Positions 5,307 through 12,708 of a DNA stretch of 28,550 nucleotides are shown here, one piece after another; position 1 is the first letter of the stretch; each line of letters opens with the position of its first letter. Source of the DNA: a virus (lineage: Duplodnaviria; Caudoviricetes). A model generated the notes under the pieces. It ran no database searches and was not told the origin of the DNA. It saw nothing but the letters and a program-made list of their open reading frames with translations. A program made the position numbers and the translations under genes. The stretch spans positions 1 through 28,550 of IMG/VR virus record IMGVR_UViG_3300038393_001497; one strand, given 5' to 3'.

Positions 5307-5315
5307 ATCCGTGTG

Positions 5316-5340
5316 GGCATATATCCCCTTGAAACATGTA
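5316..5340 (+). repeat. Left terminal inverted repeat of IS1595 element
   Basis: Matches revcomp of 7950-7974. Confidence 0.9.
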
Positions 5341-5363
5341 AGCACAATCGCTATATAAGGGGA

Positions 5364-6245
5364 ATGACGAAGAGCAAGGCACCGACCCTCCGGCAATTTC
5401 AGGACCGCTTCCCGACCGAGGATAGCTGCTTGGATCACCTGTTTGAGGTCCGCTACGCGGGCACGAATTGCCCGAAGTGCGACCGTCCGGTGAATTACAG
5501 CCGCGTTCGCGGTCGCCGCGCCTATCAGTGCGCATGGTGCGCGAACCAGCTTTATCCGACTGCTGGCACGCCGTTCGATCGCACTCGCACCAGCTTGCGC
5601 GATTGGTTCCTCGTCATGTTCATGTTCTGCACGACTCGGAACGGTGTCGCGGCCAAGGAAGTGCAGCGCCAGATCGGCGTCACCTATAAGACCGCGTGGC
5701 GCATGGCTCACGAAATCAGGAAGTACATGGGCCAGCTCGACAGCGACGATCCCTTGGGTGGCCCTGGGCAGATCGTTGAAATCGACGAAGCGATGCTTGG
5801 CGGCAAGGCCAAGGGCACTCGCGGCGGTCGGTTCGCTGGCAACAAAACCTGCGTTCTCGGAATGCTCGAAAACGGTGGCGAGATTGTCACCCGCATCGTT
5901 CCGAGCGTGAAGGCGCACCATCTTGTTCCCATCGTGCAGGAGCATGTCCTTCGCGGTACGCACATTCATACGGACGCGCTGCCGAGCTACCAGCATCTCG
6001 GAAACCACGGCTACCGGCACTCAAAGGTGCGGCATCAGGTCGGCGAATATGTCGGCTCCGAAGGCCAGACCGTAAACCGGATTGAAGGCTTCTGGTCGAT
6101 GCTGAAGCGCGGCATCAACGGCACGCACATTCATGTCAGCCCGAAGCATCTGCCGAAGTACCTTGGCGAGTTCGAGTACCGCTGGAACATGCGGCATGTG
6201 CCGCACTTGATGCTCGACCGGCTGATGCACTCGTTCACCCGCTAG
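5364..6245 (+). CDS. tnp: IS1595-family (ISXO2-like) DDE transposase
   Basis: Zn ribbon CPKC...CAWC, HTH with TAWRM, VEIDEAMLGG, IHTD, NRIEGFWSMLKRGI.GTH..VS.KHL..YL.EF.YRWN. ATG at 5364 follows AAGGGGA. Confidence 0.95.
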   Translation: MTKSKAPTLRQFQDRFPTEDSCLDHLFEVRYAGTNCPKCDRPVNYSRVRGRRAYQCAWCANQLYPTAGTPFDRTRTSLRDWFLVMFMFCTTRNGVAAKEVQRQIGVTYKTAWRMAHEIRKYMGQLDSDDPLGGPGQIVEIDEAMLGGKAKGTRGGRFAGNKTCVLGMLENGGEIVTRIVPSVKAHHLVPIVQEHVLRGTHIHTDALPSYQHLGNHGYRHSKVRHQVGEYVGSEGQTVNRIEGFWSMLKRGINGTHIHVSPKHLPKYLGEFEYRWNMRHVPHLMLDRLMHSFTR

Positions 6246-6453
6246 GCTCACGATCCTTTGCGGCGAGCGCCAACGGCAGCACATTTGCTCGCGTTAGCTC
6301 ATCCACACTCCTGATGAGGAGGTAGCGGGCAACGTCCCCGACGTTCGAGCCGTAGCGTCCGGATTCAACGAGAAGTTCAAGGCAGCGGTACACGTCATCC
6401 GGCAATGACGGGTGAACCTTTTTCGAATCGGTTGTGTTCTTTGGCCGCGCCAC
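6235..6453 (-). CDS. Ribbon-helix-helix (CopG/ParD-like) small regulator, IS passenger
   Basis: VHPSLPDDVYRCLELLVESGRYGSNVGDVARYLL resembles the RHH 'lV.sGrY.s.sevvR' pattern. Confidence 0.55.
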   Translation of the reverse strand: MARPKNTTDSKKVHPSLPDDVYRCLELLVESGRYGSNVGDVARYLLIRSVDELTRANVLPLALAAKDREPSG

Positions 6454-6550
6454 GGATGCAGCATAAGCGGGTTCTTAGTCGCTAACAATTCACCAAGTAG
6501 TGACTACAAACTGCTTGACGATCTGTTCACTCTGGCGCAGTAAGAACACG

Positions 6551-6586
6551 AAGAAAGGGCGGCCCCCTCTTTCGAGAGAACCGCCC
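6551..6586 (-). terminator. Intrinsic terminator downstream of the IS-borne tRNA
   Basis: Minus strand GGGCGGTTCTCTC-GAAA-GAGGGGGCCGCCC followed by TTTCTT. Confidence 0.75.
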
Positions 6587-6596
6587 CTGAAGGGTG

Positions 6597-6669
6597 GGTG
6601 ACGGACCGGAATTGAACCGGCGACCTAACGGGTACCAACCATTCGCTCTACCACTGAGCTACCGCCACC
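6597..6669 (-). tRNA. Atypical tRNA, anticodon GGT (Thr), His-like acceptor stem
   Basis: Cloverleaf: G GTGGCGG TA GCTC AGTGGTA GAGC G AATGG TT-GGT-AC CCGTT AGGTC GCCGG TTCAATT CCGGT CCGTCAC C. All four stems pair; anticodon at 6644-6646. Confidence 0.88.
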
Positions 6670-6778
6670 GCCTTACGCGGGCCAGCCGTAAAAAGCTGGC
6701 CCGTATTCATATGGGCCTTATCGCGGAAGCGGAGTCAAGCGGCTGCTGGCACTACCCGTGGACAAGTTCGTGAAATGT

Positions 6779-6910
6779 TCACGCCTTCGGATCAATATCT
6801 TGTGGATTGTTGCCCTTGCGCTGCGCCTTCGCTGTGCGTTCTTCCGCCTTATGCGGCTCGCCTTGGCTCATTGCCTTTAGGAGGCGGTCGAAGCGGTTCT
6901 GCCAGCCCAT
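6779..6910 (-). CDS. Small basic protein, 43 aa, IS passenger (not in ORF track)
   Basis: MGWQNRFDRLLKAMSQGEPHKAEERTAKAQRKGNNPQDIDPKA with AAGG-rich upstream region. Confidence 0.4.
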   Translation of the reverse strand: MGWQNRFDRLLKAMSQGEPHKAEERTAKAQRKGNNPQDIDPKA

Positions 6911-6950
6911 TAGCCTTGCCTTTCTGAGTTCATTTTAACACGCTCGACGA

Positions 6951-7931
6951 ATGGTGCGGCTACTTAAATTGGGCGCGATCATCGCCGCCCTCATTATCGT
7001 CGGCGGCAGTGCGTTTGTGTGGGCCTCAGCCGAATACGCCGCCCGGGAGAATGTACGCCGCGCCAGCGATGCCGCCCACGAATACAAGCAACATGCAGAC
7101 GGCGAAGCAAATGATCGCTGCAGGCTCATCGCCGCGTCGGAACAGGCGGAATGCCGCTACTCCATATACCACAGTGCCCACGAGGCAGGCCTGCGTGAAC
7201 GCGAAGTAGAGGCAGACGAGAATAACGCGGTATGGGTCAAGGCCGCCGGTCGAGCGGCCATTCTCGGGATTATTTTTACACTGCTCAGCCTGTTTCTGCT
7301 CTGGGCAAATTTCGCTGAGCAACGAATTACGAACCGGCAGTCGAGGGCGGATGCTAAAGATGCCGCTGCCTCTGCTGGCAAGTCTCTCGCCGCCGCTAAC
7401 AAGGCCGCCAAAGCGGCTGCTGCTCAGGTCGAAATCGCTCAAGACACCGCCTATCGAGACCTTCGAGCGTATCTTTCGATAGTCGTTGAGGGCGACAAGC
7501 CGAGCAAAAGCATTCTGTCCGGGACGGTCATCATCCGAAACGCTGGCCAGACGCCGGCAGGCATCAAACTGTTTATCAACACCTGGATCGGGCCGTGGCC
7601 CACAGAGGACCCGCATACGAAGGGGCCGCCACTCCTCGAAGATCCCCACCATCAGCCTTATATCAATCGTGGCTGTGAAGAGCGGGTCGCGTGGTTCTAT
7701 CCGTGGGCCGGGGACGCGCAGGATGAAATCGGCAAACTGTTCGGCGAACGGTCGGAGAAAGTCGCGCTGATGGTCTACGGAAGAGTCGAGTTCATTGACT
7801 TTATGAAACGCGAACGCGTGCTCAACTTCTCGTACCGCGACAACGGTTTCGTTGAGATGGGAAAGCCGATTGAAATGGTCCCCACTCCCAAAGGAAACGA
7901 GTACGAGGATCGCAGCGGCTACGAGGCTTAG
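6951..7931 (+). CDS. Two-TM membrane protein of unknown function, IS passenger
   Basis: TM near aa 5-26 and ~100-120, Ala-rich coiled coil, C-terminal beta domain (LRAYLSI, IRNAGQTPA, VYGRVEFID). Ends just before TIR-R. Confidence 0.75.
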   Translation: MVRLLKLGAIIAALIIVGGSAFVWASAEYAARENVRRASDAAHEYKQHADGEANDRCRLIAASEQAECRYSIYHSAHEAGLREREVEADENNAVWVKAAGRAAILGIIFTLLSLFLLWANFAEQRITNRQSRADAKDAAASAGKSLAAANKAAKAAAAQVEIAQDTAYRDLRAYLSIVVEGDKPSKSILSGTVIIRNAGQTPAGIKLFINTWIGPWPTEDPHTKGPPLLEDPHHQPYINRGCEERVAWFYPWAGDAQDEIGKLFGERSEKVALMVYGRVEFIDFMKRERVLNFSYRDNGFVEMGKPIEMVPTPKGNEYEDRSGYEA

Positions 7932-8275
7932 CACTGCCCAACCCCTCCGTACATGTCGGAAGGGGATATATGCCTCCGTGTGACTCGGACGGCCGGGCGC
8001 AACGGCTCCAGTCCGTGAACGCGGCGCATTTGGTTTTCGGAGACGCCGCTTACCCACATCCATTTGGGCTTCCAGAACTGCCACCACGGGCGCGCCGGAA
8101 TCCGATAGCGGGGCGTGTGGTCGGGGTTCATCCTGCCAAGCCACGCCTCGGCCAGCGCCTCTTCGCGCCAATCGCCCATTGCGGTCCTCCCTAGCCCCGA
8201 TACCCACCCGTAAGGGCGGAGACAAACGCAGATTTGGCTCCGTTCATGGGTAGCGGGATAAGCTCCAAAATCCAT
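7928..8275 (-). CDS. Hypothetical phage protein with its 3' end interrupted by the IS
   Basis: MDFGAYPATHERS...PWWQFWKPK...VRVTR. The original end was RI-stop at 5303-5308; it now reads into TIR-R. Confidence 0.5.
   Translation of the reverse strand: MDFGAYPATHERSQICVCLRPYGWVSGLGRTAMGDWREEALAEAWLGRMNPDHTPRYRIPARPWWQFWKPKWMWVSGVSENQMRRVHGLEPLRPAVRVTRRHISPSDMYGGVGQC
7950..7974 (-). repeat. Right terminal inverted repeat of IS1595 element
   Basis: Revcomp matches 5316-5340, followed by TSD. Confidence 0.9.
8193..8266 (+). repeat. Structured repeat copy F (reduced)
   Basis: AGC C CCG ATA CCCA [CCCgtaaGGG][CGGAG ac aaacgcagattt gg CTCCG] TTCA TGGG TAG CGG..GCT CC. Shares 22 nt exactly with copy C. 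Confidence 0.65.
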
Positions 8276-9082: not shown

Positions 9083-9615
9083 GGGTTAGAGCCTGGTGTG
9101 GATGGTCCTGGAGAAGGGCTGGGCGTCTCGGCTGCGCCGACCGCGTGCTCGTGAACGGCACCAATCTTCGTTGTTGCCGCCGTTCCGGCTTCGCCCGCTG
9201 ACGCGATGTTCGCCCTGTGAAGGGTCACACATTGCCGCAGCCCCGGCGCGCACCCGCCTCGCTCACGATGAGTTTTCTCGCCAACTGCGAAAGCGATTTC
9301 GGTGCCGCGCGAAATGAGGGCGCTTTCCGATTGTGCATCCTCTGCTCTCAATGACGCTAGCGCATTCTCGGCCTCAGCGCGGGTGCTATACGCGCGCACG
9401 TCTAGACCGTCTCTGACGAGAATGTGTCGTCGGTAGGGCCCGTGTAAGTCGATCCTATAGATATGCTTGGCGCTCATTTGCCGCCTCCCGCGATAGCCGA
9501 TTGAAGCGGGAACCGCCGAGACGTGAAACAGGCTCGGCCCGAAGGGCGAAAGCGGCGGTGCCGTAAGGCAATCGCCCGGAACCTTGCCGCGCCCATATCC
9601 TTCCTCATTGGTCAC
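9079..9615 (-). CDS. Hypothetical protein containing two inverted copies of the structured repeat (alternative start 9477)
   Basis: Open frame from GTG 9615 (overlapping the previous stop) or ATG 9477 (GGGAGG RBS). Confidence 0.5.
   Translation of the reverse strand: MTNEEGYGRGKVPGDCLTAPPLSPFGPSLFHVSAVPASIGYRGRRQMSAKHIYRIDLHGPYRRHILVRDGLDVRAYSTRAEAENALASLRAEDAQSESALISRGTEIAFAVGEKTHRERGGCAPGLRQCVTLHRANIASAGEAGTAATTKIGAVHEHAVGAAETPSPSPGPSTPGSNP
9121..9204 (-). repeat. Structured repeat copy E
   Basis: GCGTC A GCG G GCG AAG [CCGgaaCGG][CGGCA ac aacgaagatt gg TGCCG] TTCA CGA GCA CGC GGT [CGGCgcaGCCG] A GACGC CC. Confidence 0.8.
9490..9577 (+). repeat. Structured repeat copy A
   Basis: GCGAT A GCCG A TTG AAG [CGGgaaCCG][CCGAG ac gtgaaaca gg CTCGG][CCCgaaGGG] CGA AAG CGGC GGT [GCCgtaaGGC] A ATCGC CC. 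Confidence 0.85.
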
Positions 9616-10666: not shown

Positions 10667-10714
10667 GCCTTCGGGAGGCAGGGGCCGGAGGTTCGAATCC
10701 TCTCTCCCCGACCA
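10667..10714 (+). other. attP: attP core: 3' half of tRNA-Pro(CGG)
   Basis: GCC TTCGGGA GGCAG GGGCC GGAGG TTCGAAT CCTCT CTCCCCG ACCA gives anticodon loop, T-arm and acceptor 3' strand with CCA. No D-arm or 5' half; adjacent to the 3' end of int. Confidence 0.85.
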
Positions 10715-11957: not shown

Positions 11958-12145
11958 CTGCGGCCCGCGATAGCCGATCGAAGCCCAACGGGCCGAGACA
12001 GTGAAACATGGCTCGGTTCACGAGAGCGGCGGTGCCAACGGCAATCGCCCAATATGTATTCCCTATGCCCCTTCTTTCTTACCAATACCCAGGGTGATCT
12101 TAGGCTTAGCTTTGAGTCCAAATACTGACGATGGTAAGTTTTCAT
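11954..12145 (-). CDS. Small hypothetical ORF made of an AT-rich segment plus repeat copy B
   Basis: ATGA coupled on both sides. Confidence 0.4.
   Translation of the reverse strand: MKTYHRQYLDSKLSLRSPWVLVRKKGHREYILGDCRWHRRSREPSHVSLSRPVGLRSAIAGRR
11967..12050 (+). repeat. Structured repeat copy B
   Basis: GCGAT A GCCG A TCG AAG [CCCaacGGG][CCGAG ac agtgaaacat gg CTCGG] TTCA CGA GAG CGGC GGT [GCCaacGGC] A ATCGC CC. Confidence 0.85.
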
Positions 12146-12708
12146 GGCGCATTCCCTTCGGGAACCGGGCCGTCGTGAACCGAGCCGCCAATCTTTGTTG
12201 CCGTCTCGGCCCGTTGGGCTTCCGTCCCTTGCGCGGCGCGAGCGCGTAGAGCGGCGGCGCAGAGGGCGAGGGCGGGGGTTGCGGCACTTGCGCCTTTGCT
12301 CTCGTCCGTCTCAGCAGTAGGATCGCCTACGAGCGCATATGGCCGATTGGCGGATGGGCCTACGCTCGAAACGACGAAGCCCCTCCCCTCCGGCACCAGC
12401 GCCATTGCTGCGTCGAGGGAGGCGGTGTAGCGCGCCCCATCGGCCATCCAGTCGATACGAAAGTTGCTCTCACGTTCGCCGTGCAATTCAGCGCCAGCCA
12501 TAACCAGCGACCGCTCGTGCGGGGTCGCTACCGCAGCGAGCCAAATCTCGCGGTCGAGCTTGGCGTCGGCGGCCTTTGCGCGCTCACAGCGGCGGGCGAG
12601 TTTCTTGACGCGCGAAGGATCGAAGCCCGCAGGGTGGAGATGCATAGCAGCTCCATCGCTTGCGACCAGAGCCTGACCCGAAGGGGCGCGCCCAGTATCT
12701 ATATCCAT
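12142..12708 (-). CDS. Hypothetical phage protein
   Basis: YTASLDAAMALVPEG..ATPALALCAAALRARA pattern typical of alphaproteobacterial phage proteins; C-terminus encoded by repeat D. Confidence 0.7.
   Translation of the reverse strand: MDIDTGRAPSGQALVASDGAAMHLHPAGFDPSRVKKLARRCERAKAADAKLDREIWLAAVATPHERSLVMAGAELHGERESNFRIDWMADGARYTASLDAAMALVPEGRGFVVSSVGPSANRPYALVGDPTAETDESKGASAATPALALCAAALRARAAQGTEAQRAETATKIGGSVHDGPVPEGNAP
12145..12234 (-). repeat. Structured repeat copy D
   Basis: GCGCA A GGG A CGG AAG [CCCaacGGG][CCGAG ac ggcaacaaagattggc gg CTCGG] TTCA CGA CGG CCC GGT [TCCCgaaGGGA] A TGCGC CA. Confidence 0.8.

Follow-up and report, generated by a model that had tools for sequence, protein, structure and literature searches.

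A conserved tRNA gene combining a histidine-type G-1:C73 acceptor end with a threonine anticodon in a mobile IS1595-family cassette of a temperate phage

The window, i.e., the whole analyzed stretch of 28,550 nucleotides, is a contig of a temperate phage with integrase, repressor, terminase, and endolysin genes. Just past the integrase stop, positions 10669–10714 (plus strand) match exactly, over 46 nt, the 3' half of a Sphingomonadales tRNA-Pro(CGG), and likely form the attP core. Because of this match, and because the closest named relatives of the transposase described below are mostly from sphingomonads, we infer that the phage host belongs to Sphingomonadales. The early region also contains an imperfect 36-nt direct repeat (81%; 9487–9522 and 11964–11999) and a 36-nt inverted repeat (12010–12186).

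An IS1595-family element of 2,659 bp with passenger genes occupies positions 5316–7974. It is bounded by 25-nt terminal inverted repeats (left, 5316–5340, plus strand; right, 7950–7974, minus strand; 88% complementary) and by an 8-bp target-site duplication (5308–5315 and 7975–7982, plus strand; 8/8 identical), and the empty-site joint 5307/7975 is seen in three of the four runs. The transposase (5364–6245, plus strand; 293 aa) is intact and combines a zinc ribbon with an IS1595-type DDE domain (PF12762 and PF12760; NF033547, 199 bits at a cut-off of 75), both being features of the family. From the look of its ends, the element may belong to the ISNwi1 subgroup. Siguier et al. are said to have described, in 2009, passenger-carrying “transporter IS” within the IS1595 family, and the element resembles these in its transposase, short inverted repeats, 8-bp duplication, and variable passenger genes. 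One passenger gene encodes a 326-aa protein with two hydrophobic stretches (6951–7931, plus strand), of no known family and absent from the other tRNA-bearing elements. No toxin or nuclease gene was found in the element by family matches, and a toxin–antitoxin or defense pair was rejected on the same ground.

The tRNA gene is part of an optional cassette (6245–6845), which is missing from most related elements; contigs of related elements join about position 6244 to 6846, skipping the cassette, in all four runs. The cassette comprises, in the order of the minus strand, a GC-rich leader hairpin seen in the fold just upstream of the tRNA (6678–6703), the tRNA gene itself (6597–6669), an intrinsic-terminator-like hairpin of 15 pairs with a T-rich tail directly 3' of it (6555–6588), and, beyond the terminator, a 72-aa ribbon-helix-helix (RHH)-like ORF (6235–6453). 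The tRNA is thus antisense to the transposase, and its orientation and terminator suggest a separate transcription unit; no sigma-70 consensus promoter was found for it. The RHH-like ORF matches no entry of Pfam, NCBIfam, or PADLOC; it has 159 relatives, and its homolog P0002 is named in its source as an Arc/MetJ-type RHH protein. Upstream of the cassette is a 43-aa ORF (6779–6910, minus strand); many related elements, irrespective of cargo, share its N-terminal half, in convergent orientation to the transposase gene. The original prediction had linked the tRNA to an IS, and the link is borne out by the position of the gene inside an element with inverted repeats and an 8-bp duplication. The tRNA was also considered as the phage attachment site, and rejected, the att core being the tRNA-Pro 3' half beside the integrase.

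The tRNA gene reads on the minus strand from G-1 (6669) and G1 (6668) to C72 (6598) and C73 (6597), followed by C (6596) and A (6595). It forms a clean cloverleaf with a 7/5 fold, a 5-bp anticodon stem, a 5-nt variable loop, and a fully canonical elbow. The acceptor pairs are G1-C72, U2-A71, G3-C70, G4·U69, C5-G68, G6-C67, and G7-C66, and the additional G-1:C73 is paired in the MFE fold. The anticodon loop is UU-GGU-AC, with a Thr anticodon followed by A37-C38; G49·U65 is present. CCA is not encoded after C73, as bases 73–75 are themselves CCA, i.e., one C fewer than in a His-type end. The structural features predicted initially (G-1:C73, U2:A71, the UU-GGU-AC loop, and the absence of CCA after position 73) are hence all present. 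That the loop arose from a His loop through a deletion was rejected, the stem being in register with a 7-nt loop; a register with bases 73–75 as an encoded CCA was rejected, too, as the discriminator is then lost, and is kept only as a possible dead-end product.

ARAGORN calls tRNA-Thr(GGT) at 6597–6669, and both ARAGORN and Rfam find no further tRNA in the window. The match to Rfam RF00005 (62.8 bits, E 1.3e-11) falls inside the range of the host's own tRNAs (50–78 bits). Region 6540–6720, with the tRNA and the two flanking hairpins, folds with z = -4.79, and none of 200 shuffles is equally good. Contigs of runs X1 and X4 show 0 differences across the gene, although one best-matching run may be the window's own sample; run X21 also matches with 0 differences, in two 151-nt pieces at depth 2. 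Since all three match, assembly error does not account for the gene. Among 24 runs listed, no RNA run with the sequence appeared, which speaks neither for nor against expression.

Host tRNAs are represented here by Sphingomonas daechungensis (genome G001), which carries a related cassette at L007/L088. Among its 46 other tRNA genes, all of which encode CCA, C73 is found in tRNA-His only (1/46) and U2 in none (0/46); C2-G71 is present in all three Thr tRNAs; and G49·U65 occurs in tRNA-His and, overall, in nine of the 46, with none of the three Thr tRNAs among them. Compared to tRNA-His(GUG), the window tRNA shares G-1:C73, G1-C72, G3-C70, and G49·U65 with the S. daechungensis gene, and differs in its GGU anticodon, A37, shorter D-loop, and lack of an encoded CCA. 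The host tRNA-His acceptor has C2:G71 where the window tRNA has U2:A71, and of the acceptor marks only G-1:C73 and G3-C70 are common to both. Compared to tRNA-Thr(GGU), the anticodon (with G35 and U36), G1-C72, variable loop, and D-arm equal those of the host gene, the D-arm (18/18) matching this host tRNA only; however, the window tRNA has G-1:C73 and C38, lacks C2:G71, and differs in all three other stems. Whole-gene scores are 48 for both Thr(GGU) and Ile(GAU) and 44 for His, and thus do not settle descent.

Bacterial His identity is attributed to G-1 and C73, with a weaker contribution of the anticodon (PMC4357726, PMC9976931). For bacterial Thr identity, Table 1 of PMC9976931 lists G1-C72, C2-G71, G4-C69, G5-C68, and the anticodon, and the same source describes position 73 as mattering little to bacterial ThrRS. 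In the window tRNA, U2-A71, G4·U69, and C5-G68 stand in place of the listed C2-G71, G4-C69, and G5-C68, and the tRNA would likely be rejected by ThrRS. The mixed His/Thr identity suggested at the outset is supported, as the gene is conserved (see below) and lacks C2:G71, a bacterial Thr determinant. A caveat attached to that suggestion, namely, that Sphingomonadales have lost G-1 from tRNA-His, proved wrong: the order is placed in the group retaining G-1:C73 and canonical HisRS (PMC3937112), the host-type tRNA-His has G-1:C73, and in both related genomes the motif-2 loop of HisRS is of the Gln type. Because Sphingomonadales keep G-1:C73 and canonical HisRS, charging with histidine is likely. 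Both genomes also encode a PF01743-family enzyme, this family covering CCA-adding enzymes and poly(A) polymerases without telling the two apart.

A scan of 30 of the 64 parts of IMG/VR yielded 120 loci, in which 76 distinct viral genes with a Thr anticodon are well paired and have C73 (within L371–L490). C73 is hence common in viral Thr-anticodon genes. C2:G71 is retained in all 76, and G at -1 occurs in only one, a near-absence that looks as if G-1 were selected against in this set; the combination of G-1, C73, and U2:A71 is found in none of the 76. Five well-paired viral Thr-anticodon genes, in four loci, combine U2:A71 with A73. Other IMG/VR loci (L215–L319, e.g., L230, L266, L270, and L313) contain recurring UGU-anticodon genes with G2:C71 and U73, several of them with an encoded CCA, and clusters with G73-free odd acceptors; the many rows of this survey that are pattern-register artefacts were not counted as non-canonical.

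The cassette is rare. Among 197 transposase loci compared (duplicates included; for 173 of them, 700 nt or more of downstream sequence was available), the cassette or its RHH gene is found in S. daechungensis only, low-threshold ARAGORN calls at the related loci being judged spurious by eye. A pattern search in 271 genomes of the same genus gave five matches, of which one is a real tRNA (genome G1473) and four are not tRNAs. The G1473 cassette (L500) is orthologous and resides in a different IS1595 element, with a transposase 29% identical to that of the window. Cassette searches gave one match among 401 genomes of the order, S. daechungensis itself; three among 301 genomes of the class, two of them without a tRNA; and none but itself among 101 relatives of G1473. 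BLAST of the element retrieved one transposase fragment from plasmids and 11 generic tRNA matches from phages; the RHH protein and the tRNA region had no match, or partial tRNA-length matches only, in plasmids; three patterns for the cassette gave zero, two unrelated, and zero matches in IMG/VR, and alignment of the RHH protein against IMG/VR gave none.

The S. daechungensis cassette contains a different tRNA (L007:6196–6269, minus strand), with G2:C71, A3:U70, and G73 in the acceptor, no G-1 or CCA, and two mismatches in the anticodon stem. Its loop is best read as Thr(UGU), while ARAGORN says Tyr; calls of this kind thus mislabel such genes, as Thr for the window tRNA and as Tyr here. In L368 and L370, the tRNA slot upstream of the RHH-like gene is filled by an ORF for a 38–45-aa basic peptide followed by a terminator; the repeats upstream of the slot in L370 resemble DnaA boxes. 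Because the L007 tRNA is of the G73 type and the L368/L370 slot holds a peptide ORF, the cassette, judged by these loci, does not require His identity.

Outside the class, two of 381 Terriglobia genomes have tRNAs with the same acceptor (A4-U69 replacing G4·U69), one with a GGU and one with a GUU anticodon (L491:1501–1574 and L492:1501–1574; L493, L494). Both are in the transposase leader of IS1-family elements with inverted repeats, and both have an atypical T-loop; in L491, a second tRNA-like unit lies upstream. The L493/L494 elements also carry an HTH antitoxin-like gene beside an unannotated neighbor that may be its toxin. Further tRNA-like genes were observed at a Defluviicoccus locus (L063:5277–5353, plus strand; U73, 8-nt anticodon loop; an IS1595 transposase precedes it by 191 nt), with an acceptor that resembles, by eye, the published tRNA0 acceptor; at L037:3596–3683 (plus strand; GUU (Asn), long variable arm, CCA), with an IS1595 transposase about 1.3 kb further downstream; and, in degenerate form, on a viral contig (L119:2930–3050, minus strand), after a hairpin resembling the cassette leader and with no similarity to the IS.

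The L500 tRNA is identical to that of the window at 70 of 73 bases, and retains G-1, U2:A71, C73, the entire anticodon loop, and the CCA-less end. Of the three differences, two compensate each other within a single T-stem pair, and the remaining one exchanges a purine for another purine in the T-loop. The background is far more divergent: the spacer is identical at 58 of 91 positions, and the fourfold-degenerate sites of the RHH gene at 9 of 28, i.e., near saturation. Against two conservative backgrounds, the binomial probability of such conservation is 6e-11 (spacer) and 3e-8 (RHH nucleotides). Since the gene is kept, with a compensatory pair, where synonymous sites are near-saturated, sequence comparison places it under purifying selection. 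The neighboring elements follow, with 46 of 52 positions of the terminator region (6545–6596) identical in L500, a comparable hairpin in L007, and the leader hairpin stem retained in both. Across the four genes from two phyla, which are two related pairs and not four independent events, seven of eight acceptor pairs are invariant and the anticodon stems covary; G-1 and G49·U65 are each kept in 4/4. Decay in homologs, named in the original prediction among the signs that would speak against it, is not seen in the ortholog, which is nearly identical, has a compensatory change, and keeps its stems intact.

The G-1 type of RNA is already known, being described and partly tested by Mukai et al. (2017; PMC5389517), who report, from soil metatranscriptomes, polycistrons of irregular tRNAs that include G-1 “tRNA1” species bearing Thr anticodons; the finding is taken up again in a review (PMC7609411). 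Of the 21 G-1 rows in the table of Mukai et al., which include duplicates, 18 state an anticodon, and in 16 of these it is GGU, UGU, or CGU. E. coli HisRS is reported there to charge two G-1 GGU species with histidine more efficiently than it charges tRNA-His, and the same two inserted no His at an ACC codon of sfGFP in E. coli; the tested species had GUG at positions 35–37, and the authors suggest that HisRS may have read this GUG. In a by-eye comparison, two GGU rows labeled “short CCA” share the first 15 nt of the window tRNA, and we read the label as denoting the same C73-C-A end. The published species have mostly Thr (NGU) anticodons on a 7/5 or 8/4 fold; the window tRNA likewise has an encoded G-1 pairing with C73 and an NGU anticodon, on a 7/5 fold. 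In contrast to the published species, which, by the text and table rows of that paper, come from a presumed acidobacterial tRNA0-tRNA1-tRNA2 polycistron, it is solitary, with its own terminator and RHH-like gene, in an IS1595 element of an alphaproteobacterial phage, and has A37-C38 where the tested species have G37.

Other systems are more distant. The tRNA-ProX described in PMC10404621 likewise has an acceptor that specifies one amino acid and anticodons that belong to others, Thr included, but with Pro identity (A73, G72), of which the window tRNA has no marks, and with mistranslation demonstrated in E. coli. Allo-tRNAs have an 8/4 or 9/3 acceptor branch and a long variable arm, unlike the 7/5 fold and 5-nt variable loop seen here, and a bioRxiv preprint on ACA reassignment offers a looser parallel. 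In the literature searched, where most subscription journals are outside coverage, we found no later paper on the G-1 tRNA1 species, no identity-switched tRNA as an IS1595 passenger, and no earlier description of an alphaproteobacterial phage in which an IS1595 element carries such a cassette on its own.

Our leading explanation, put forward tentatively, is that of a conserved IS1595-cargo tRNA, likely His-charged and probably poorly decoding, that acts as a stable mimic displaying a Thr anticodon loop. Transcription of the cassette tRNA would be separate and would stop at the terminator, and RNase P would cut the precursor at -1, as described for tRNA-His (PMC12439589). A host enzyme would then trim the 3' end and complete CCA; since the C73-C-A end lacks the full His-type CCA, the missing C must come from such trimming and repair. 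Host HisRS would charge the product via G-1:C73, a step that we consider quite probable. The charged tRNA would decode ACC and ACU poorly while presenting the Thr loop; that little His is inserted at these codons is marginally favored. C38 is expected to hinder formation of t6A37, and is counted here for poor decoding. The benefit might, most speculatively, lie in titrating readers of G35-U36 (ThrRS, or tRNA-targeting toxins and nucleases), and, equally speculatively, the RHH-like protein might be the cassette repressor.

Selection on G-1, U2:A71, C73, and the anticodon loop is consistent with such a mimic, as are the invariant acceptor pairs. A role that does not need accurate decoding fits because the Terriglobia relatives keep the acceptor with an atypical T-loop and, in one case, GUU. 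By analogy, the two G-1 GGU species that are histidylated yet reported to insert no His at ACC (PMC5389517) may serve as a precedent. From these relatives and the host HisRS type, the “uncharged decoy” originally proposed is less likely than a His-charged tRNA, and nothing observed here points to the originally suggested role against anticodon nucleases. Several observations speak against the mimic. The window tRNA has A37, not the G37 of the tested species; the published negative concerns one reporter position in E. coli, and may not carry over to a tRNA with a canonical elbow and a 5-bp anticodon stem; maturation would depend on repair, unlike that of the 46 CCA-encoding host tRNAs; the anticodon loop is unchanged in the ortholog, and the gene looks fully ribosome-competent; the same cassette slot is occupied by a G73 tRNA in L007 and by peptide ORFs in L368/L370; and the element has neither a detectable sigma-70 consensus promoter for the tRNA nor a toxin or nuclease gene.

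The main rival, and a close one, albeit itself on the unlikely side, is an active missense tRNA. Charged with His and brought to the ribosome by EF-Tu, it would insert His at ACC/ACU, either at low frequency or upon induction, and so serve the element in mistranslation, dormancy, or anti-phage action. The canonical cloverleaf, scoring within the host range, and the loop identical in the ortholog suit it, as does G49·U65, shared with host tRNA-His, with nine host tRNAs overall, and with no host tRNA-Thr, and invariant in all four relatives. The published rows, duplicates included, vary at the wobble position and keep G35-U36 constant in 16 of 18, as expected for reading of the Thr box; and natural mistranslating tRNAs exist, such as allo-tRNAs and tRNA-ProX (PMC10404621). 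However, the two tested relatives inserted no His at ACC (PMC5389517), and one Terriglobia relative has GUU. Moreover, nine ACC and four ACU codons are among the 20 Thr codons of the transposase, and ACC is also common in phage genes, so that misreading would hurt the carrier. A bolder proposal, which we regard as improbable, is that the identity-switched tRNAs of IS1- and IS1595-family transposons come in interchangeable cassettes under RHH control, and that the window cassette, with a His-charged tRNA reading Thr codons, would when derepressed cause proteome-wide Thr-to-His mistranslation; if true, insertion sequences would be spreading an RNA-only toxin or defense effector, in this case aboard a phage.

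Less probable still is an ordinary, if unusual, spare tRNA-Thr(GGU), for which ThrRS would have to tolerate U2:A71 and RNase P to cut at +1. It would account for G1-C72, G34, G35, and U36, for the D-arm shared with host tRNA-Thr(GGU) only, and for a C73 that would matter little to bacterial ThrRS, and the five viral genes with U2:A71 (and A73) offer a parallel; yet G-1, avoided in C73 Thr genes (1/76), is kept in all four relatives, three listed Thr determinants are replaced, and the published relatives are charged by HisRS (PMC5389517). Comparably doubtful is a fold that serves the element, either by directing the processing or stability of the transcript of the cassette or transposase, or as a DNA handle for cassette capture. 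The tRNA does adjoin the transposase on the same strand in L500 (downstream) and in L493/L494 (leader), the cassette passes between elements whose transposases share only 29% identity, and its slot takes different RNAs or a peptide ORF; in the window, however, tRNA and transposase lie on opposite strands and the tRNA has a terminator to itself, a conserved anticodon loop is unnecessary for a processing signal, and most related elements lack the tRNA. A decaying or never-matured pseudogene hitch-hiking in the IS, as the CCA-less end, the rarity of the cassette (one real match in 271 genomes of the genus, no further one in 101 relatives), and the two stem mismatches of the L007 version might suggest, is very improbable, given a gene kept with a compensatory change and all stems intact against near-saturated synonymous sites.

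The tRNA gene is real, selected, and mobile. Since 2017, the only source of irregular G-1 tRNAs has been fragments of soil transcripts, with charging seen in vitro and no role assigned; here, one is found in a defined mobile cassette, and for one G-1 tRNA purifying selection on the mixed His/Thr identity is now documented. Natural controls are provided by the phage site in its occupied and empty states, by related IS that have or lack the cassette, and by the cultured strain S. daechungensis JCM 17887, which carries a sister cassette; they make it directly testable whether such a tRNA is a decoy, a regulator, or a deliberate mistranslator.
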